Assembly: GCA_964016885.1 (NCBI GenBank)
Contig: OZ024742.1
Span: forward strand, 101,990,001 to 102,054,000
DNA length: 64,000 nt
Origin: Eledone cirrhosa
Lineage: Eukaryota
Reading direction: 5' to 3'
How positions within the stretch are numbered: position 1 is the stretch's first letter; every line of letters starts with the position of its first letter. Shown here piece after piece: positions 1 through 63,745 of the stretch. The notes under the pieces are model-generated. The model had not been told where the DNA came from. It was given only the letters and a program-made list of their open reading frames with translations, and did not search any database. A program made the position numbers and the translations under genes.

Positions 1-584
1 AATAAAAATGGTATTTATAGGTCTCTACAAGTGGTAGGAGAGGGTGGGGAGTGGGATGGGTGTAGGTCATTGGTTGATAGAAAAGGGAATTCATTAAAAG
101 CTAATTCTACAAAGCTATAGTTTATTTTTATTTATTTATGTTTTTAGAGTAACAAAGGCAGACAGAATTCTATAAACATGTTCCGGATGGCATACCATTC
201 CTTGTCATTACGTTTCTCTTAAGCTAACAGATGTCTATAAGATCAGTGGGGGGTCAGTCATGGTAGATAGAATTAAAGAAAAGGGAGATTCTTTAAAAGC
301 TAAAATCATTAAGGTTCTACTAAGTGACAAAGGTTTAGAGAATTCTGTAGACAGATTCAAAATACTGAGTGCATATCTTACAATTATCTTCGAACTTCTC
401 TTAAACTAATCAACTATATGCCAAAAATCAACAGACACATTCACAAAAAAACATACTCACCCACACACTCGCGTGCAGCCATAAACACACATACACATAT
501 ACACACATAAAAACACACACATACACATATATATAAAAATATATTTATATACATACATATACATACACACATACATATATATAT

Positions 585-631
<47 letters not shown>

Positions 632-650
632 TATATACATACACACACAT

Positions 651-697
<47 letters not shown>

Positions 698-766
698 CAC
701 ATATAAATACACTCACACACATACATACAAACACAAATATACATGTGTATACATATACACATAAAT

Positions 767-809
<43 letters not shown>

Positions 810-818
810 CATACATAT

Positions 819-861
<43 letters not shown>

Positions 862-933
862 CATACATATATATATATATATATAAAATACAAATACACA
901 CACATATATACATATACACACACATACACACAA

Positions 934-968
<35 letters not shown>

Positions 969-1096
969 CATAAACAAATACACACACATATATACATATA
1001 CACACACATACACACAAACACACAAACACACACACACACATATATATATATATACATAAACAAATATATACATATACATACACACACACATACATA

Positions 1097-1144
<48 letters not shown>

Positions 1145-1162
1145 TATATAAGGAAAAAGCAC

Positions 1163-1230
<68 letters not shown>

Positions 1231-1285
1231 CACCATTCATACATATATTCATATATATATACATACACATATATATATATATATA

Positions 1286-1342
<57 letters not shown>

Positions 1343-1395
1343 ATACATACATACATATATACACAAATACATACACACATATACACACACACACA
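1..1395 (-). mobile_element. Inverted copy of the 3' UTR of Naiad-type PLE #1 (continues beyond the window start; resumes at 3250-3318)
   Basis: 1-440 is a near-identical reverse complement of ~7096-7535. The compound microsatellite 440-1395 mirrors ~6320-7095 and 3250-3318 mirrors ~6250-6320. Inverted 5' arms are typical of PLE insertions. Confidence 0.9.
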
Positions 1396-1580
1396 ATACA
1401 AAAGTGAGTTACAAACGAAACGAAATTTAATTTCGTTTCGTTATTTGTTTTTATCGTCTCCGCTGAACCGGTACGTACTCACGCTCTATGCAAATTAGTC
1501 TGCCCACTACTAATTTTCATAGAAAAAGCATATAACGATATGTGCTTTTACGATTCTCTAGAAAGGCCGGAAGATAGGTA

Positions 1581-1625
1581 AATATTGCTGATGAGATGTA
1601 ACAACATCGAAACTAGTCCAATATT
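1581..1625 (+). ncRNA. Type I hammerhead ribozyme (array A, copy 1)
   Basis: AATATTG-CTGATGA-GATGT aaca ACATC-GAAA-CTAG-TC-CAATATT: 7-bp stem I, intact core, 5-bp stem II, palindromic minimal stem III, GUC site. Confidence 0.93.
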
Positions 1626-2046
1626 CCTTGTCTGGCTTTCTGGAGAATAGAGGAAAGGTGTTTCCTCGAAAACCAGTATGACTCTAAAAACCGGTTTGTC
1701 TGTGTGTTTACATACAGAATAGCTGGACACTCACAGTAAAGTGTCCAGTGAAAAACTCGGTACATCTACATATGTACACGTGTGTGTATTCATATGCATA
1801 CTAGTATTTCAGTATACATATGTGGATGTACATTTTTAATTTAATTGTTTAAGCGTCAGTCATACAAAAGTGAGTTACAAACGAAACGAAATTTAATTTC
1901 GTTTCGTTATTTGTTTTTATCGTCTCCGCTGAACCGGTACGTACTCACGCTCTATGCAAATTAGTCTGCCCACTACTAATTTTCATAGAAAAAGCATATA
2001 ACGATATGTGCTTTTACGATTCTCTAGAAAGGCCGGAAGATAGGTA

Positions 2047-2091
2047 AATATTGCTGATGAGATGTAACAACATCGAAACTAGTCCAATATT
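2047..2091 (+). ncRNA. Type I hammerhead ribozyme (array A, copy 2)
   Basis: Same sequence as 1581-1625, offset +466. Confidence 0.93.
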
Positions 2092-2512
2092 CCTTGTCTG
2101 GCTTTCTGGAGAATAGAGGAAAGGTGTTTCCTCGAAAACCAGTATGACTCTAAAAACCGGTTTGTCTGTGTGTTTACATACAGAATAGCTGGACACTCAC
2201 AGTAAAGTGTCCAGTGAAAAACTCGGTACATCTACATATGTACACGTGTGTGTATTCATATGCATACTAGTATTTCAGTATACATATGTGGATGTACATT
2301 TTTAATTTAATTGTTTAAGCGTCAGTCATACAAAAGTGAGTTACAAACGAAACGAAATTTAATTTCGTTTCGTTATTTGTTTTTATCGTCTCCGCTGAAC
2401 CGGTACGTACTCACGCTCTATGCAAATTAGTCTGCCCACTACTAATTTTCATAGAAAAAGCATATAACGATATGTGCTTTTACGATTCTCTAGAAAGGCC
2501 GGAAGATAGGTA

Positions 2513-2557
2513 AATATTGCTGATGAGATGTAACAACATCGAAACTAGTCCAATATT
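2513..2557 (+). ncRNA. Type I hammerhead ribozyme (array A, copy 3)
   Basis: Same sequence as 1581-1625, offset +932. Confidence 0.93.
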
Positions 2558-2978
2558 CCTTGTCTGGCTTTCTGGAGAATAGAGGAAAGGTGTTTCCTCG
2601 AAAACCAGTATGACTCTAAAAACCGGTTTGTCTGTGTGTTTACATACAGAATAGCTGGACACTCACAGTAAAGTGTCCAGTGAAAAACTCGGTACATCTA
2701 CATATGTACACGTGTGTGTATTCATATGCATACTAGTATTTCAGTATACATATGTGGATGTACATTTTTAATTTAATTGTTTAAGCGTCAGTCATACAAA
2801 AGTGAGTTACAAACGAAACGAAATTTAATTTCGTTTCGTTATTTGTTTTTATCGTCTCCGCTGAACCGGTACGTACTCACGCTCTATGCAAATTAGTCTG
2901 CCCACTACTAATTTTCATAGAAAAAGCATATAACGATATGTGCTTTTACGATTCTCTAGAAAGGCCGGAAGATAGGTA

Positions 2979-3023
2979 AATATTGCTGATGAGATGTAAC
3001 AACATCGAAACTAGTCCAATATT
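2979..3023 (+). ncRNA. Type I hammerhead ribozyme (array A, copy 4)
   Basis: Same sequence as 1581-1625, offset +1398. Confidence 0.93.
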
Positions 3024-3244
3024 CCTTGTCTGGCTTTCTGGAGAATAGAGGAAAGGTGTTTCCTCGAAAACCAGTATGACTCTAAAAACCGGTTTGTCTG
3101 TGTGTTTACATACAGAATAGCTGGACACTCACAGTAAAGTGTCCAGTGAAAAACTCGGTACATCTACATATGTACACGTGTGTGTATTCATATGCATACT
3201 AGTATTTCAGTATACATATGTGGATGTACATTTTTAATTTAATT

Positions 3245-3293
<49 letters not shown>

Positions 3294-3319
3294 TATATAT
3301 ATACATAAATATATATATA

Positions 3320-5019
3320 AAGGTAATAGAGAGGGCACTGACTGAGACAAACGCGGCCGGAAAAGAAATCACCAAGTCCCTTAAATTACACGACCGAACC
3401 GAACCTTTAAGGGTAAAGACCCCGCACTTTACCCTGAAGGACCATAAGGGAAACTTCCTCAACAAACCATCAGTCAGAGTTATCAACCCCACTCGTTCTG
3501 ACATAGGCTCTATCAGTAAGAAGATCCTGGATAGAGTTCTACCATCATTGCGGGCAGCCTCACCACTTCCACTCTGGAGCAGAACATCTGAGGCAATATC
3601 ATGGTTCCAAAAGTTACCCGATAAACACCACACTCGCTTCCTGCAACTCGACATAGAAAACTACTATGCCTCTATCTCGGAGCCCCTCCTGAAGGACGCA
3701 ATTAACTTTGCCAGGAATTTTACCACCATTACCGATGCTGAGCAAGTTGTTATCCTCCACGCTCGTAAGACCTTTCTATACCACGATGGATCTTACTGGA
3801 TCAACAAGAAATCTCAGACCCCATTTGACGTTAGCATGGGGGCGAGTGACTCGGCTGAAATTAGCCACCTTGTGGGCCTGTACATCCTACATAACCTGAA
3901 GAACCTCTTTACCTGCCTAACGGGAGGTTTATACCGAGACGACGGCCTCTTCGCCCTGCATAAGGTTAACCCCAGAACCACCGATGGGTTTCGGAAAAAC
4001 TTAAGCTCTTCTCTAATCTAGGATTTAGTATAACTATAGATTCTAATTTGACTAGGGCCAACTTCTTAGATGTCACTCTCGACCTAGATACTTCCCTCTA
4101 TTACCCGTACCACAAACCTAACGAGTCCCTTAAATATATTAATGTTAATTCAAACCACCCCCAAAACATCACTGATAACCTAGTAAAAAGCGTCTCTATT
4201 AGAATATCTGGCCTCTCCGCCAACAAAGATATTTTTAATGCATCTGCCTCCTACTACAATGACGCCCTCGCCCGTAGCGGATTTAAAGATAAGATAACTT
4301 ACCTAGAAACCACCGCAAGATTGCAGAGGAGGAATAGACATAGGCAGATTAGCTGGTACAACCCTCCCTTCAATAGAGAGGTATCTACTCCGATAGCTAG
4401 GATTTTCTTCACTTTACTGAAATTACACTTCCCCATACAACATAGGTACCACACCATCTTTAATAAGAACACAATAAGACTGTCTTACTCCACCACACCT
4501 AACCTAGCTAGGAATATAGCCAACCACAATTCTAAAAAATTAAATAAGCCAACCACCTCCGAACCCAATCCCCGGACTGGGGCTCTATGTAATTGCCTAA
4601 ATAAGGAAGCATGCCCACTTGAAAACAAATGCCTCACAAATGATATCGTATACAAATGCGATGTCATCTCAGGCACCGAGGATTGCAAAAAAACTTACAT
4701 CGGCATGACCTCCAACAACTTTAAGACCCGTTGGTATGCCCATACCCACTCCTTCAGAAGACCGGATAAATCAAATCAGACAACACTCGCCTCCTACGTT
4801 TGGGACCTCAAAAGGAACTCCACCCCCTTCACGCTTAAATGGAAAATACTCCAGAAAGCGTGCTCTTACAACGGAGGACACAAGGGCTGCGACCTTTGTA
4901 TTTCAGAGAGCTACGAAATTTTATTCGCCAAGGGCCCGCTACTGAACAAACTCTCTGAACACTGCCCGAACTGCATGCACAAGAACTTTGCAACTTCAAA
5001 CACTTTAAGCCAGTGTTAA
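3320..5019 (+). pseudogene. PLE reverse transcriptase + GIY-YIG endonuclease, N-truncated, one frameshift near 4000-4020
   Basis: RT motifs LKDHK..F, RVINP, LDIENYY, MGASDSAEI, GLYRDDGL, NFLDVTLD; WYNPPF; CNCLNKEAC (CxCx5C linker reported for Naiads); IVYKC...YIGMT; CDLC; LLNK. ORFs 3218-4021 and 4048-5019 join across a frame change. Confidence 0.92.
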
Positions 5020-5199
5020 AGCCCGATGGCTAAAAACGACCTCCCCCTATTGGCCCCTATACCTCCTCCCCACCCTACCCCCACCCCTCCTCAACCTGAA
5101 ATACGGCCACTATGGTTATGTGAGTACCTCCTTCCTATCTACATTTTCTGCCTGTAGAGGTGTTTTTATGTGCCTGCATATATGCGTATATTTATTGAG

Positions 5200-5340
5200 T
5201 ACTTATTTATTTGTATGTGTATATATTTGTTTGTATGTGTGTATATGTATGTGTATGTGTATATATATATATATGTTTGTGTGTATATGTGTTTTATGTG
5301 TGTATATTTATGTATGTGTATGTATATGTATATATGTATA

Positions 5341-5390
<50 letters not shown>

Positions 5391-5440
5391 TGTATATATG
5401 TGTATGTATGTGTAGGTATGTATGTATGTATGTATATATG

Positions 5441-5499
<59 letters not shown>

Positions 5500-5518
5500 T
5501 GTGTATGTGTGTGTGTGT

Positions 5519-5555
<37 letters not shown>

Positions 5556-5789
5556 GTGTGTGTGGGCAGGTGTGTATATATATGTGTGTGTATGTATATA
5601 TATATATATATATATAAATATATATATATGTGCGTGAGAGAGAGTGTGTATATATATTTGTGTGTGTGTATGTGTGTATGCGTGTATATATGTATATATG
5701 TGTGTATATATGCGTTATATGTCTGTATATATATGTGTATCTTTATGTATAGGTCTGTGTATGTATGTGTATATTTGTATATATATGGA

Positions 5790-5824
<35 letters not shown>

Positions 5825-5911
5825 TTATACATATGCATGTGTATGTGTGTGTGTGTGTATATATATCTATATATGTGTGTGTGTGTATATATGTGTGTGT
5901 ATATGTATGTG

Positions 5912-5942
<31 letters not shown>

Positions 5943-6038
5943 ATGTGTATATATAGGTTGTATATATATGTATGTATATGTATGTATATATATGTATGTA
6001 TATGTGTGTGTGTGTATATATGTGTGTGTATATGTATG

Positions 6039-6071
<33 letters not shown>

Positions 6072-6260
6072 ATGTGTATATATATGTGTGTATATATGTA
6101 TATATATATATATATATATATGTGTATATGTATGTTTGTATATATGTTTGTATGTATATATATATATGTATATATATGTGTGTATATGTATGTATATGTG
6201 TGTATATTTATATATATATATATGTATGTATATGTGTGTATATTTATATATATATATATT

Positions 6261-6327
<67 letters not shown>

Positions 6328-6545
6328 ATATGTGTGTATGTATTTGTGTATATATGTATGTATGTGTATGTGTGTGTGTATATGTGTGTGTGTGTATATA
6401 TATATATATATGTATGTGTATATATATATATGTGTGTGTATGTATATATATATGAATATATGTATGAATGGTGTATCTCTCTCTCTCTCTCTCTCTCTCT
6501 ATGTATGGTGCTTTTTCCTTATATATGTGTATATGTGTGTGTGTG

Positions 6546-6578
<33 letters not shown>

Positions 6579-6704
6579 GTGTGTATATATATTTGTTTAT
6601 GTATATATATATATATACATGTGTGTGTGTTTGTGTGTGTGTATATGTATATATGTGTGTGTATGTGTATTTTATATATATGTATGTATATGTATGTATG
6701 TATG

Positions 6705-6735
<31 letters not shown>

Positions 6736-6744
6736 ATATGTATG

Positions 6745-6787
<43 letters not shown>

Positions 6788-6922
6788 ATGTGTATTTATG
6801 TGTATATGTATACACATGTATATTTGTGTTTGTATGTATGTATGTGTGTGAGTGTATTTATATGTGTATATATGTGTGTGTGTGTGTGTGTATATATATG
6901 TATGCGTGTGTGTATGTATATA

Positions 6923-6969
<47 letters not shown>

Positions 6970-7062
6970 ATATATATATATGTATATATATATATGTGTG
7001 TATGTATATGTATGTATATAAATATATTTTTATATATATGTGTGTGTGTGTTTATGGCTGCA
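5200..7062. repeat. Compound (TA)/(TG)/(TATG) microsatellite inside the PLE 3' UTR
   Basis: Seen directly; its distal part is mirrored in the inverted arm 440-1395. Confidence 0.95.
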
Positions 7063-7546
7063 CGCGAGTGTGTGAGTGAGTATGTTTTTTTGTGAATGTG
7101 TCTGTTGATTTTTGGCATATAGTTGATTAGTTTAAGAGAAGTTCGAAGATAATTGTAAGATATGCACTCAGTATTTTGAATCTGTCTACAGAATTCTCTA
7201 AACCTTTGTCACTTAGTAGAACCTTAATGACTTTAGCTTTTAAAGAATCTCCCTTTTCTTTAATTCTATCTACCATGACTGACCCCCCACTGATCTTATA
7301 GACATCTGTTAGCTTAAGAGAAACTTAATGACAAGGAATGGTATGCCATCCGGAACCTGTTTATAGAATTCTGTCTGCCTTTGTTACTCTAAAAACATAA
7401 ATAAATAAAAATAAACTATAGCTTTGTAGAATTAGCTTTTAATGAATTCCCTTTTCTATCAACCAATGACCTACACCCATCCCACTCCCCACCCTCTCCT
7501 ACCACTTGTAGAGACCTATGAATACCATTTTTATTTTTTGATACCC

Positions 7547-7597
7547 AGATTCCTGATGATTTCTAAAGAATGAAACAGTTCTAGTCCTGTAGAATCT
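7547..7597 (+). ncRNA. Type I hammerhead in the pLTR of PLE #1
   Basis: AGATTC-CTGATGA-TTTCT aa AGAAT-GAAA-CAG ttctagtc CTG-TA-GAATCT. Confidence 0.88.
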
Positions 7598-7679
7598 CAT
7601 CTATATTAAAACTTTTATACTCTGCTATGTATTGAGTACCTTACTTACTGTGGTTACCTCCGATTCAACCCGGAATAAC

Positions 7680-7727
<48 letters not shown>

Positions 7728-7996
7728 AGAAAAAATGAAACGAAATTTCATTTCCCACTCTTAGTACGGCTATTACTTAAATATAAGTATGTATACATAC
7801 ATACATATATGTATACAAACGTACAGTAGTATGTATATATATATATATACATACATGCACACATATATATATGTACGTATGCTTTCACCGAACATTTATT
7901 ATAATGCTCGGTGTGTATGTAAACAAACATCCCATATTAAGCCGTACGTAGTGTCTAGCAACCATCGTTGCTCGTTTGTTCAACACTGACAAAGGA

Positions 7997-8039
7997 ACTC
8001 TGTACTAGTTTCAAACTTATTAGCTATCGTCAGCAACGT
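7997..8039 (-). ncRNA. Type I hammerhead (family B), slightly mutated
   Basis: Reverse complement ACGTTG-CTGACGA-TAGCT aata AGTTT-GAAA-CTAG-TA-CAGAGT. Confidence 0.8.
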
Positions 8040-8442
8040 ATACCTTCCTGCCAGATTGTTGAACGTATATACTTACCGTATGCATATTAACGGCTGAGTA
8101 GCCCAATTTGCATATCGAGTGGGATGTTTGTTTACAAACACACCGCACATTATAATAAATGTTCGGTGAATCCATACGTACATATATATATGTGTGCATG
8201 TATGTATATATATATATATACATACTACTGTACGTCTGTATACATATATGTATGTACGTGTACATACTTATATTTAAGTAACAGCCGTACTAAGAGTGGG
8301 AAATGAAATTTTGTTTCACTTTTTCCCTTTATCGTTTTCGGTGCACCCGGCCGATTAACCCACTCGATATGCAAATTCGGCTACTCAGCCGTTAATATGC
8401 ATAAGGTAAGTATATACGTTCAACAATCTGGCAGGAAGGTAT

Positions 8443-8485
8443 ACGTTGCTGACGATAGCTAATAAGCTTGAAACTAGTACAGCAT
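8443..8485 (+). ncRNA. Type I hammerhead (family B)
   Basis: ACGTTG-CTGACGA-TAGCT aata AGCTT-GAAA-CTAG-TA-CAGCAT. Confidence 0.87.
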
Positions 8486-8707
8486 TCCTTTGTCAGTGTT
8501 GAACAAACGAGCAACGATGGTTGCTAGACACTACGGTTTAATACGGGATGTTTGTTTACAAACACACCGAGCATTATAATAAATGTTCGGTGAATCCATA
8601 CGTACATATATATATGTGTGCGTGTATGTATATATATATACATACTACTGTACGTCTGTATACATATATGTATGTACGTGCACATACTTATATATATATA
8701 TATATAT

Positions 8708-8884
8708 AAAATTTAATATAGAAATGGCTTCTACATGACTAGAACTGTTTCATTTGAAAGAAATCATCAGTCTTGTAGAAGCCATTTCTATATTAAATTT
8801 TGTATATACTCTATTAATGTATTGATTACTTCATCTACTGTGGTTACCCCCCCCCCCCCCCCCCCCGATTAAACCCGGGTCTCA
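8708..8884. mobile_element. Fold-back PLE pLTR remnant related to PLE #1, with an HHR core on the minus strand (~8725-8770)
   Basis: 28-bp inverted repeat 8708-8735 / 8774-8801. The minus strand reads CTGATGA-TTTCTTTCAAAT-GAAA-CAGTTCTAGTCATG-TA-GAAGCC. The tail resembles 7598-7680. Confidence 0.8.
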
Positions 8885-37891: not shown

Positions 37892-37944
<53 letters not shown>

Positions 37945-37989
37945 GAGAGTAAAACAAAGAATCCTTTAATACATCAAAAGTTTTTATTA

Positions 37990-38027
37990 GCCGACAATGT
38001 TTCGTCCTATTAAGGACTCATCAGGGC
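37990..38027 (-). ncRNA. Type I hammerhead (PLE #2 pLTR, sense)
   Basis: Reverse complement GCC-CTGATGA-GTCCT taat AGGAC-GAAA-CATTG-TC-GGC. Confidence 0.92.
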
Positions 38028-38370
38028 AATCAAAACAACAAGAAGTAATATCGGCAGATACAAGCCGGAAGCTCCGAAGAATATGGAGTGTACATACACT
38101 AAAGTCTTGCAAAAATATATGATAATAAAAATAAAAATAAAAATAATAAAAATATATAATAAGAATAACTAAGGATGTATATAATATTAAGAACCATATT
38201 ACAAATATAGTCCAAAGCAACTAACCTAAATCTAAACAAATTTGGTTATATAGAGCAGGAATTATATATAACACAATGTAATATAACATAATACATTATA
38301 ATAATATACCTTTACCAACATTAAAATTACAATTAAAAATCAAAAGGTACAATATATACATGTATATATG

Positions 38371-38428
<58 letters not shown>

Positions 38429-39292
38429 ACAATACGCACATCTATGTTCAACTACACAAATTAAGCCTTATTAGAAATTTGAATATAAAAATAAGCATGA
38501 TAAGAGTGAAAATAATACCAATACATCTACCCAATATACATGAGGCAATAATATGATATAATTACAAGAGACACATATAATAAATAATAAACAATAAAAT
38601 TATATAATTCAATATAATATAATAGATAATAGAAACAATATAGATGTCACAATAAAATACAATGATAATATGTTAACAGTGTACTAACATTTACAATAAA
38701 CAATATATACAAATCGATTCATACTGGGTTACAGAGTAAATGAGGAAAAGTAAATTATATAATACTCAAAAAAACACTATAATGGTACAGGAAAAATTAT
38801 GATGGTACAGAAAAAAATATACAGACATCTTACATGATATGTAAAGTCTAAATATCATAATGTTACATATAATGAACAGTAAGTAATAAGGATCAATATT
38901 ACAATATTACAAAAATACAGACATCTTACATGATATATAAAGTTTAAATATCATAATGTTACATATAATGAATAGTAAGTAATAAGGATCAATATTACAA
39001 TACAATATAAGATGAATCTGAATAAAATAAAAAATAAAAATAGAATTAAAAATAAAATTAATAATAAAAATAAAAATAAAGATAATAATAGAATAACGTA
39101 AGTGGCGTAAAGTGTGTAATCTTATATATATTAACAAGGTGTAATAGTGAAAACATAGATATGGTACAGTAGCCAAATGATTATGAGAGCTAGAATGAAG
39201 AGTCATCAAAAACCAATGGTAATAATGATGATAACAATAATGTTGGCAAACAAAAGAACCTAAACTAAAAACTAAGTAATGGAATATATCTG

Positions 39293-40494
39293 CTAATGGG
39301 TACAATTTGTACTACTAGAACGTTTGGGTTTATAATAAAAATAAGAATTAGAAATGGCGTGGGGGCAAGAAGAGAATATCTCAGACTTTCTATTAAGTAA
39401 GGATATGCTAGAGAAAATTATAGAGTGTGTCTCAAGTATACAGAGATTACAAAACTTACTATGTGTAGAAAGGTGGTTAGAGCGTGCTACTAAACGCCAG
39501 TTAAGGCTATATGGTATATAAGCTCCCTTAAGATCCCAGATATAATGCGCTAAAGAAGTAGAATTCTTAAACCTAACATGTTTGAAGTTACAGATATGAG
39601 AGTTAAACCTAGTCTTAAAAGTGTTTGAAGTAGATCCTATATAAGTTCTATTAGAGGAATTAGTTATAACTTCGCAAGCGTAGACAATGTTCTTAGAAAG
39701 GCAGTTACCGTTTAGAGGGCAGTTAGCACTCACTCTACAATTGCACTTCCGGGTGTTATTGGTTGGCTCGAGTGGTGATGTATTACACGTAGGACCTCTA
39801 TTAGATAAGGACTGTTCTGGTGGTAAAGCATTGTCAGATCCGTTCAGACTAGTAGTATGTAGAGAGGAGAATCCATCCCTAATTTTCCTATTATTAGTGC
39901 TAGCTAAATGAGAACTAATATTAGGGGTGGTAGAGAATGAGAGTTTAATAACATTTTTATTAAAAATACCATGGTATTTATGAGAAGGGGGGAAATATTT
40001 CTCTAAGATAGTGAAGAAAGACCTAGGGATATTAGTTGATACATCCTGATTATATGGCGGGTTGAAATAAGTATTTAATCGCCTTCTATTTTTATTCTTA
40101 CCGACCCTACCTTTATCAAATGTCCCACCGTCGAGACTAGGGTTACTATCAGGATTAGTTGAAGCCACATTCATAGAATCAGCCATAATTTCGTTATGTC
40201 TATTATAGTTTCTACCTCCAGTAGATCTGCTGCTGTCCGGAATCCCTTCAAGAGGATTAGGGCCAATGATAGGATCAGTAGGAGCAACATTATTAGAATA
40301 AGATCCAGCAAAACCAACACCAATGCGTGAGCGCACAGGGGGTTCAACTTGTCTCCTAGAGGTATTATATTTGCTATTACGAGTCCGGTGGGTTAACTTA
40401 TGGGTCGGTTCAGATACACCTATATAATTTCTACGGTTACTATATTTGCTACTCCCATTCATGGCCATGTTATGTGATATAATGTTATTATTAT
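39293..40494 (-). pseudogene. C-terminal part of a Naiad-like PLE ORF (linker + GIY-YIG); RT lost by truncation
   Basis: YFNPPY, KYFP..HKYHGIFNKN.IKLSFSTTPN, CNCRVSANCPL, IVYAC...YIGST, CNLC, LLNRKSE..CPH. The first ~39 aa of the called ORF come from the inverted pLTR. Confidence 0.9.
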
Positions 40495-40581
40495 TTTTGC
40501 AAGACTTTAGTGTATGTACACTCCATATTCTTCGGAGCTTCCGGCTTGTATCTGCCGATATTACTTCTTGTTGTTTTGATT

Positions 40582-40619
40582 GCCCTGATGAGTCCTTAAT
40601 AGGACGAAACATTGTCGGC
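40582..40619 (+). ncRNA. Type I hammerhead (PLE #2 inverted pLTR)
   Basis: GCC-CTGATGA-GTCCT taat AGGAC-GAAA-CATTG-TC-GGC. Confidence 0.92.
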
Positions 40620-40766
40620 TAATAAGAACTTTTGATGTATTAAAGGATTCTTTGTTTTACTCTCTTAATTTTTTGGCTCTGTTTAACTGCATTGAGCTAT
40701 ACCTTTTACTGTCATTTCTATAACACGAAGAGGGTGGTTAACTCCAACACGCTCCAGTATTCTAAT

Positions 40767-40832
<66 letters not shown>

Positions 40833-40983
40833 TATATATAACCAAAAGTTTATATGGTTCGTTGATTATTCAATGAATTCAATTTTACAATAGATTAGAA
40901 GCACTCGACAAGATTTTATCTGGAGTATCTATAATATTATTCAAAATATTAATAAATGAGAAATGTTATCATAACCAAAGTAT

Positions 40984-41048
40984 ATATTTTATTATACATA
41001 TTTCAAAGGTACAATGGTGTTTTAGTACGTTTTCATCAGATAAAATAT
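40984..41048 (-). ncRNA. Type I hammerhead (family D)
   Basis: Reverse complement ATATTTTAT-CTGATGA-AAACGTAC..GTACCTTT-GAAA-TATGTA-TA-ATAAAATAT. Confidence 0.85.
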
Positions 41049-41140
41049 ATAAGAGACTGGTACTTGAATCTTCAATATACTGCCACTACAGGAATTAAAG
41101 ATTCAAGTACCTTAGCGGTATGTCGCATATCCAATCTCAT

Positions 41141-41205
41141 ATATTTTATCTGATGAAAACGTACTGAAACACCATTGTACCTTTGAAATATGTATAATAA
41201 AATAT
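41141..41205 (+). ncRNA. Type I hammerhead (family D)
   Basis: ATATTTTAT-CTGATGA-AAACGTAC..GTACCTTT-GAAA-TATGTA-TA-ATAAAATAT. Confidence 0.85.
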
Positions 41206-41314
41206 ATACTTTGGTTATGATAACAATTTTCATTTATTAATATTTTGAATAATATTATATATATATATATATATAGTGTACATAGGTGTATGTGTATCTA
41301 TACATGTGCGTATA

Positions 41315-52452: not shown

Positions 52453-52456
<4 letters not shown>

Positions 52457-52558
52457 GGAAAAAATGAAACGAAATTTCATTTCCCACTCTTAGTACGGCT
52501 GTTACTTAAATATAATTATGTACACGTACATACATATATGTATACAGACGTACAGTAG

Positions 52559-52594
<36 letters not shown>

Positions 52595-53002
52595 CACGCA
52601 CACATATATATATGCACGTATGGATTCACCGAACATTTATTATAATGCTCGGTGTGTTTGTAAACAAACATCCCATATTAAGCCGTAGTGTCTAGCAACC
52701 ATCGTTGCTCGTTTGTTCAACACTGACAAAGGAACGCTGTACTAGTTTCAAGCTTATTAGCTATCGTCAGCAACGTATACCTTCCTGCCAGATTGTTGAA
52801 CGTATATACTTACCTTATGCATATTAACGGCTGAGTAGCCCAATTTGCATATCGAGTGGGTTAATCGGCCGGGTGCACTGAAAACGATAAACGGAAAAAA
52901 TGAAACGAAATTTCATTTCCCACTCTTAGTACGGCTGTTACTTAAATATAAGTATGTATACGTACATACATATATGTATACAGACGTACATACTACTGTA
53001 CG

Positions 53003-53010
<8 letters not shown>
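52453..53010 (-). mobile_element. Retrozyme-like family B, second insertion (~1.2 units of 436 bp)
   Basis: AAACGGAAAAAATGAAACG at 52453 and 52889; highly similar to 7723-8122; (TA)n flanks. Confidence 0.87.
52734..52776 (-). ncRNA. Type I hammerhead (family B, intact)
   Basis: Reverse complement ACGTTG-CTGACGA-TAGCT aata AGCTT-GAAA-CTAG-TA-CAGCGT. Confidence 0.9.
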
Positions 53011-53041
<31 letters not shown>

Positions 53042-62056: not shown

Positions 62057-63745
62057 ATTGGAATAAATGCTCTGAAATAGCGATATATATGTGAATATAG
62101 ACATAGAATATTCGAAAATATTCTGTATGTTTATAATAAACATTTTGAAGACCTAATCGCTATAGAATAGAATACGTCACGTATTACAATTAGATTCTCG
62201 ATAAAAGCAAGGGAAGTAATCTACGCGTTTCATTCTTATTAGAAATCTTCAGGACTACATATCCAGTGCTTTTATCGAGAATGACACAGCTAGAGACTTA
62301 TAGAATACTTAGCTGTGTACAGGAACTGGTTTGAAAGAGCGGTTGCCGGTCCGGCAGAAATTAGAAATTGGAATAAATGCTCTGAAATAGCGATATATAT
62401 GTGAATATAGACATAGAATATTCGAAAATATTCTGTATGTTTATAATAAACATTTTGAAGACCTAATCGCTATAGAATAGAATACGTCACGTATTACAAT
62501 TAGATTCTCGATAAAAGCAAGGGAAGTAATCTACGCGTTTCATTCTTATTAGAAATCTTCAGGACTACATATCCAGTGCTTTTATCGAGAATGACACAGC
62601 TAGAGACTTATAGAATACTTAGCTGTGTACAGGAACTGGTTTGAAAGAGCGGTTGCCGGTCCGGCAGAAATTAGAAATTGGAATAAATGCTCTGAAATAG
62701 CGATATATATGTGAATATAGACATAGAATATTCGAAAATATTCTGTATGTTTATAATAAACATTTTGAAGACCTAATCGCTATAGAATAGAATACGTCAC
62801 GTATTACAATTAGATTCTCGATAAAAGCAAGGGAAGTAATCTACGCGTTTCATTCTTATTAGAAATCTTCAGGACTACATATCCAGTGCTTTTATCGAGA
62901 ATGACACAGCTAGAGACTTATAGAATACTTAGCTGTGTACAGGAACTGGTTTGAAAGAGCGGTTGCCGGTCCGGCAGAAATTAGAAATTGGAATAAATGC
63001 TCTGAAATAGCGATATATATGTGAATATAGACATAGAATATTCGAAAATATTCTGTATGTTTATAATAAACATTTTGAAGACCTAATCGCTATAGAATAG
63101 AATACGTCACGTATTACAATTAGATTCTCGATAAAAGCAAGGGAAGTAATCTACGCGTTTCATTCTTATTAGAAATCTTCAGGACTACATATCCAGTGCT
63201 TTTATCGAGAATGACACAGCTAGAGACTTATAGAATACTTAGCTGTGTACAGGAACTGGTTTGAAAGAGCGGTTGCCGGTCCGGCAGAAATTAGAAATTG
63301 GAATAAATGCTCTGAAATAGCGATATATATGTGAATATAGACATAGAATATTCGAAAATATTCTGTATGTTTATAATAAACATTTTGAAGACCTAATCGC
63401 TATAGAATAGAATACGTCACGTATTACAATTAGATTCTCGATAAAAGCAAGGGAAGTAATCTACGCGTTTCATTCTTATTAGAAATCTTCAGGACTACAT
63501 ATCCAGTGCTTTTATCGAGAATGACACAGCTAGAGACTTATAGAATACTTAGCTGTGTACAGGAACTGGTTTGAAAGAGCGGTTGCCGGTCCGGCAGAAA
63601 TTAGAAATTGGAATAAATGCTCTGAAATAGCGATATATATGTGAATATAGACATAGAATATTCGAAAATATTCTGTATGTTTATAATAAACATTTTGAAG
63701 ACCTAATCGCTATAGAATAGAATACGTCACGTATTACAATTAGAT
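62057..63745 (-). mobile_element. Retrozyme-like tandem array C: ~5.45 x 310 bp, one hammerhead per unit
   Basis: TTGGAATAAATGC at 62058, 62368, 62678, 62988, 63298 and 63608; copies look identical; (TA)n flanks. Confidence 0.9.
62216..62258 (-). ncRNA. Type I hammerhead (array C copy 1; others at 62526-62568, 62836-62878, 63146-63188, 63456-63498)
   Basis: Reverse complement GTAGTC-CTGAAGA-TTTCT aata AGAAT-GAAA-CGCG-TA-GATTAC. Confidence 0.9.

Follow-up and report, generated by a model that had tools for sequence, protein, structure and literature searches.

Background

In the accessible portions of Cervera and de la Pena 2020 (PMC7229834) and Li et al. 2026 (bioRxiv 10.64898/2026.07.22.740005), metazoan non-LTR retrozymes are tandem units of a few hundred nucleotides with a GC content below 50% and one type I hammerhead ribozyme per unit. 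They have a self-paired predicted circle, lack a coding region and co-occur with Penelope-like elements (PLEs). Li 2026 ties them to PLEs through this co-occurrence and through pLTR homology, favours local amplification and, in the same portions, considers the mechanism as still to be elucidated. A 2020 review, in its accessible text, describes the retrozyme repeats as being without a motif that points to a partner, and RNA editing is raised in the accessible text of Cervera 2020 just as a possible cause of circRNA heterogeneity. Within these portions, neither Cervera 2020 nor Li 2026 mentions fixed ends, a tail, inverted arms, (TA)n targeting or genomic editing footprints. PLE insertions, for their part, are described in the accessible part of Craig 2021 (PMC8557442) as having an inverted truncated arm and a tail at one end, and in vitro this tail is bounded by two internal start sites of the reverse transcriptase (Frangieh 2024, PMC11167929).

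The locus analysed here lies in a window of 64,000 nt from Eledone cirrhosa (assembly GCA_964016885.1, contig OZ024742.1), whose positions are used throughout. Its array A (1396..3249, + strand) is interpreted as a young non-LTR retrozyme insertion, likely copied in trans by a Penelope-like RT-endonuclease, with a 466-nt RNA of likely circular form as the template and a (TA)n tract as the target, and we give this interpretation a probability of about 0.78.

The family of array A is like the metazoan non-LTR retrozymes in all the structural features listed above, as well as in its co-occurrence with PLEs. Its 466-nt unit exceeds the range of 170-400 nt in Cervera 2020 and falls within the 51-972 bp of Li 2026. 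Retrozyme circles were obtained by experiment in both of these reports, whereas here they are inferred from genomic copies. A homologous pLTR was present in 24 of 57 Xenopus families (Li 2026), and none was found for the family of array A. With the PLEs of the Hydra clade and Poseidon PAc (PMC8557442, PMC11167929), the family shares an inverted 5'-truncated arm, a tail at one end, two internal start sites, AT-rich or (TA)n targets and a hammerhead. It differs from them in having no ORF, in a tail of ~70 nt instead of 30-40 bp, in that the entire repeated unit is the ribozyme-bearing RNA, and in arms that are many laps long. Non-autonomous Chlamys elements such as MRC1 (PMC8557442) are likewise non-autonomous PLE passengers in head-to-tail multicopy insertions, but they have 3' sequence in common with their autonomous partner, and canonical hammerheads are missing from most Chlamys. 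All these comparisons refer to the accessible portions of the papers named.

The retrozyme class is already known; the mechanistic evidence appears to be new. The open literature covered gave no description of the family of array A, nor of any retrozyme insertion with tails, inverted arms or editing footprints. PLE mobilisation via circles is proposed in the retrozyme literature without direct evidence. The present family adds a signature composed of two start sites, a tail and inverted arms, and it names exact positions and a target usable for an in vitro assay.

Array A and its hammerhead

The 466-nt period is exact over 1396-3249 (1,854 bp, 3.98 units, 36% GC), with zero mismatches in the assembled sequence, and no ORF of at least 120 aa was found within the array. 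The earlier note had described four apparently identical hammerhead units beginning and ending mid-unit, far from the GUC cleavage site. Comparison of the units bore this out: with unit positions counted from the cut site, the first nucleotide of the array is at 244 and its last at 233. Its units are without any variant, and their haplotype is common to 16 other fetched insertions, the best-match locus set being biased in that identical copies are favoured.

Every repeat unit carries a type I hammerhead, as in other non-LTR retrozymes. It occupies 1581..1625 on the + strand and is repeated at +466, +932 and +1398. The core (CTGATGA-stem II-GAAA-CTAGTC) occurs at 1588, 2054, 2520 and 2986, on the + strand only, and the cuts are predicted after the GUC at 1618 and after 2084, 2550 and 3016. 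Stem I has 7 bp and stem II 5 bp, and helix III consists of a single A-U pair closing the palindromic loop CUAG. No Rfam match in the window reached the gathering score, the match to Hammerhead_HH9 at 1570-1641 (E=1.9e-8) scoring 38.9 bits where 52 are required. A viroid-like or delta-like replicon was rejected, since the core is on a single strand and the sequence is integrated at thousands of loci.

Folded as a circle, the unit reaches -154 kcal/mol (z=-11.1; 0 of 100 dinucleotide shuffles were as stable), with 67% of the predicted circle paired, and the minus-strand circle has z=-7.0. The four hairpins named from the letters alone are all present in the minimum-energy circular fold. Covariation is thin, with two-sided changes at 6 of 146 predicted pairs among 32 representative units; one stem II pair is A-U in 17 of these 32 units and U-A in 15. 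GUU replaces GUC as the cleavage triplet in roughly half of the representative units (last column of alignment A1).

Helix III resembles that of the axolotl HHR_Amex1, which likewise has one pair and a palindromic tetraloop and which is active as a dimer (PMC7229834, accessible portions). By this likeness, tandem transcripts of the present family are predicted to self-cleave as dimers. In the accessible text of Li et al. 2026, eight of nine Xenopus candidates failed to cleave.

The Penelope-like element around the array

Array A is nested inside a Penelope-like element, an arrangement absent from the earlier note. The inverted arm of this host (1..1395, - strand) is microsatellite-rich, starts ~76 bp before the window and mirrors ~6200-7612; from this start to position 444, it is an inverted copy of 7612-7092, with 4 differences in 521 unique bases. 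The microsatellite flanking array A on both sides continues this arm, whose remainder, with the (TA)n target tract, follows the array at 3250..3319 (- strand) and is collinear with 1345-1395 when set against the uninterrupted other arm. Since array A is nested in the inverted arm, and since the other arm keeps its (CA)n(TA)n site uninterrupted and thereby makes the empty site visible, the array was inserted later than, and separately from, the neighbouring element. The absence of divergence among its units had been taken as a sign of a very recent event, and this identity indeed supports youth relative to the host arms, without giving a date.

The host carries a 5'-truncated ORF for a reverse transcriptase and a GIY-YIG endonuclease (3320..5019, + strand), with a single frameshift near 4000. 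Its match to GIY-YIG (E=0.0037) is below the curated cut-off; its motifs (a CxCX5C linker, CxxC and CxH) agree with the Hydra clade as described. The 3' region (5020..7680, + strand) comprises microsatellite and a unique pLTR part (7092-7612), in which a separate hammerhead-like core lies at 7553. It also includes a tail of ~68 nt (7613-7680) that is present at one end only and is followed by (TA)n. A genome search with 28,337 first-look candidates gave at least 150 copies of this Hydra-type PLE family, which have 91-98% amino-acid identity and many of which have open frames of 758 aa. Array A is not an autonomous Penelope-like element, the adjacent RT/GIY-YIG ORF being the older host's own, and the empty site in the other host arm rules out that it is the pLTR of this ORF.

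Distribution of the family in the genome

Array A belongs to a young family of non-LTR retrozymes with more than 2,000 dispersed insertions. Exact patterns searched in the 3.0 Gb genome matched the ribozyme core 9,294 times and a unit of the subtype present in the window 212 times. Position 302 adjoins (TA)n in 2,048 identical junctions, and a further 526 junctions belong to two variants at 228-229. The reversed controls gave 0 in each case. The search with the unit yielded at least 311 matches (39 scored of 389 candidates), 150 of them among the matches listed. Large divergent satellite blocks, which the earlier note had named as an outcome at odds with its reading, were not seen, and the copies are dispersed.

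The fetched sequences comprised 32 best-match loci and two end-anchored sets, both from contig C1 only: 97 stretches around position-302 junctions (from the first 100 listed, without one duplicate) and 43 around listed 228-229 junctions. Targets of the (TA)n type were seen across insertions; in the anchored samples this is partly so by construction, which does not apply to L031-L062. As regards a target-site duplication, the target is itself a microsatellite. No LTR-like architecture was seen in the parsed insertions.

Fixed 3' ends, tail and inverted arms

In RNA sense, the 3' ends fall at one of two sites that are fixed family-wide and lie ~70 nt (69-74 nt) apart. The S site corresponds to unit position 228-233 (+ strand; window 1846-1851 and also 3249, which is the 3' end of array A), and the L site to unit position ~302 (+ strand; window 1454, 1920, 2386 and 2852). 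The 'tail' between both ends (1852..1920, + strand) contains a 13-bp hairpin at 1880-1908. Two-armed inverted insertions numbered 119 in the fetched loci, and both outer ends were readable in 112 of them: 106 combined L with S, six had one end elsewhere, and none had L+L or S+S. In the set that was not chosen by its ends, L+S was found in 20 of 21 two-armed insertions. Array A, unlike these, has one arm only.

As read from the genomic copies, the fixed ends together with this pairing of arms are the Penelope 'tail' signature, and integration of the PLE type is in our opinion highly probable. The resemblance in tail length between the retrozyme (69-74 nt) and the host (~68 nt) is only suggestive, because the tail of the second PLE of the window has ~100 nt. 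The 39 endonuclease ends present in the fetched DNA, a sample that is far from exhausting the PLE diversity of the genome, included none with a pLTR homologous to the unit, and the alignment of the host pLTR with the unit is limited to the hammerhead core. The possibility that the unit is the pLTR of other PLEs was also rejected: in five cases it lies downstream of an endonuclease as a separate insertion, with differing phases and orientations.

In short-read contigs of run X1, possibly the assembly's own sample, loose ends into (TA)n occur at S and L alike; runs of organisms B and C gave just 1 and 2 low-depth contigs and were left out. These contigs bear on the possibility that array A is a collapsed or looped repeat produced by the assembly. 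The perfect identity of the four units would fit such an artefact, yet haplotype and arm length vary by locus, the junctions are orderly, the host's other arm holds the empty site and the short-read contigs show the same ends, so that we consider its probability negligible.

A distant sister family has its ends at sites equivalent to S and L. It occurs in the window at 7723-8679 and 52454-53033, with whole-unit homology (nhmmer E=4e-28) and inverted arms. In the fetched insertion L141 (780-900), each arm ends at unit position 14, with ~65 nt of GC-rich foreign sequence in between, which may reflect a template jump.

Arm lengths and passage through the cut site

The arms (n=288) have a median length of 653 nt and 67% of them exceed one unit. 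Their 5' ends are scattered round the unit, in a manner close to random truncation. The template must have been mostly continuous across the cut site, because 671 passes reach unit position 27 while 26 arms stop in positions 1-26, which amounts to ~96% read-through. These 26 ends compare with 15.6 expected (p=0.01), and such mild enrichment just past the cut site suggests that some templates were likely cleaved linear RNA. The 5' ends do not accumulate at the exact cut site: as the earlier note had proposed, the start and end phases of the other copies were compared, and 6 ends were located within 4 nt of it, against 4.7 expected. The same note regarded the mid-unit ends of array A as the product of one rolling-circle RT pass. 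Retroposition is supported, but mid-unit ends alone are no proof of a circle, because a fixed start site accounts for the 3' end and near-random truncation for the 5' end, as would equally be seen with an uncleaved multimer.

Integration of the Penelope type could also have used another main template, a linear multimer transcribed from an existing array and left uncleaved, with circles as a by-product or absent. Such a template would account equally well for the fixed ends and the inverted arms, and for arms that continue past the cut site. It would also be in line with the weak helix III and with the unprocessed RNA that was the dominant PLE substrate in vitro (Frangieh 2024, PMC11167929). 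Stalling at the arm's own start site, a possible effect of circles, was not found: no enrichment at this or the other start site was significant beyond p=0.04 (uncorrected). The short L arms of L101, L122, L123, L156, L159 and L175, misparsed owing to the tail hairpin, were left out of this test.

Haplotypes of the arms and possible editing footprints

Within one insertion, the arms differ on average by 0.55%, against a median of 6.0% to other insertions (31 loci), and both arms must therefore derive from one template or source. The closest sequence to an arm was its own partner in 23 of the 31 loci. Many distinct haplotypes were found, each of them homogeneous through up to 20 laps. In L079, 18 full units in two arms show zero differences, the nearest other locus is 5 differences away, and three A>G changes are absent from the closest relatives. 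With respect to the formation of inverted arms in PLEs, these data mean that both arms copy overlapping sequence of one template.

The terminal branches of a tree of 107 insertions carry 95 changes, of which 44 are A>G, 11 T>C, 10 C>T and 9 G>A (L101 being entered in corrected form). Among the 81 changes that are present in all copies, over at least two laps in one arm, the corresponding numbers are 39, 10, 7 and 8 (p=4e-5). Single-copy mutations are without such bias, with A>G 39 and T>C 62 out of 550 in 171 insertions. At least two A>G changes of the lap-wide type occur in eight insertions, and two T>C in none; L101 alone holds 10 A>G. The counts of A>G are not independent, because some sites recur on several branches, and when they are counted per insertion A>G exceeds T>C by 17 to 8 (p=0.11). 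A strand-specific, clustered excess of A>G is the footprint of A-to-I editing, and the 5'-neighbour preference of ADAR follows the order U, A, C, G. The 5' neighbours of the A>G sites rank in the same order, as a weak trend. ADARs are general in metazoans. Selection for wobble pairs is an improbable origin of the A>G bias: it predicts C>T over G>A as well, and the terminal branches have 10 against 9.

Editing footprints offer a way to distinguish circular from linear templates. Edits common to all laps point to one edited monomer that was read repeatedly, in the insertion or in its source, whereas an edited multimer should give lap-specific changes. On a linear multimer the laps should be edited independently, yet A>G is enriched only in the all-lap changes and is under-represented in the single-lap ones; moreover, haplotypes that are homogeneous up to 20 laps would need a repeated monomer bottleneck. 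The linear multimer is favoured by minority variants that at least five insertions (L056, L099, L139, L138 and L035) have in both of their arms. Counted from the 3' end, most of these variants lie in matching laps, and such variants in register require a multimeric template in those insertions. On balance, the linear multimer as the main template seems unlikely, and edited monomer circles, as judged from the substitution patterns, probably fulfilled this role. The support for circles sits at the level of the family, in the lap-wide A>G changes, and not in array A's own units. In one single case (L039:2832-7533), the variants have a period of 2 in one arm and 3 in the other, as would dimer and trimer templates from one source.

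Expansion at the DNA level has to be considered as well. Local periodic blocks in L108, L061, L059 and L068 indicate that these arrays grew as DNA after insertion. As in Li 2026, short insertions could generally have seeded arrays that were later expanded and homogenised by unequal exchange or gene conversion, and the local block duplications and mosaics of older arrays, together with the existence of arrays of at least 20 units, are in keeping with such satellite DNA. This leaves unexplained, however, the fixed S/L ends on multi-unit arms, the identical haplotypes of both inverted arms and the A>G bias on the ribozyme strand, and 67% of the arms are already longer than one unit in very young dispersed insertions. 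We therefore regard satellite expansion as a very improbable origin of the arrays.

Proposed course of integration

Under the preferred interpretation, copying of retrozyme RNA by a PLE enzyme, tandem transcripts would self-cleave as dimers, owing to their weak helix III, and the monomers would be ligated into circles that may sometimes be A-to-I edited. The enzyme would nick both target strands, and one cDNA would be primed at each tail edge on the same RNA. Each cDNA would then roll a variable number of laps with strand displacement before both are joined 5' to 5'. Array A would represent a minority outcome, in which just the S-primed arm is visible. A share of the insertions likely stems from multimeric RNA, and older arrays were additionally enlarged by block duplication at the DNA level.

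In its strictest form, each insertion would be the fossil of one circular RNA, on which a dimeric Penelope enzyme primes twice at the tail edges, both arms roll and ADAR edits become fixed in all laps; we rate the chances of this form as slightly better than even. If it is true, RNA editing is the main source of heritable change in the family, and the genome directly proves that PLE machinery retrotransposes ribozyme circles by a rolling-circle mode.

Other elements in the window

A second exact array, of 5.45 units of 310 nt, is located at 62057-63745. It has a hammerhead-like core (CTGAAGA) on the minus strand and both of its ends lie in (TA)n; it is likely to represent another retrozyme family. 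The second Penelope-like remnant (37942-40769) has inverted arms with a hammerhead in each, a tail of ~100 nt and an ORF piece at 39293-40618 (- strand). Finally, short inverted-repeat elements with hammerhead-like cores are present in (TA)n at 8680-8870 and 40926-41263. The former resembles the end of the host PLE, and both are likely minimal non-autonomous PLE insertions.
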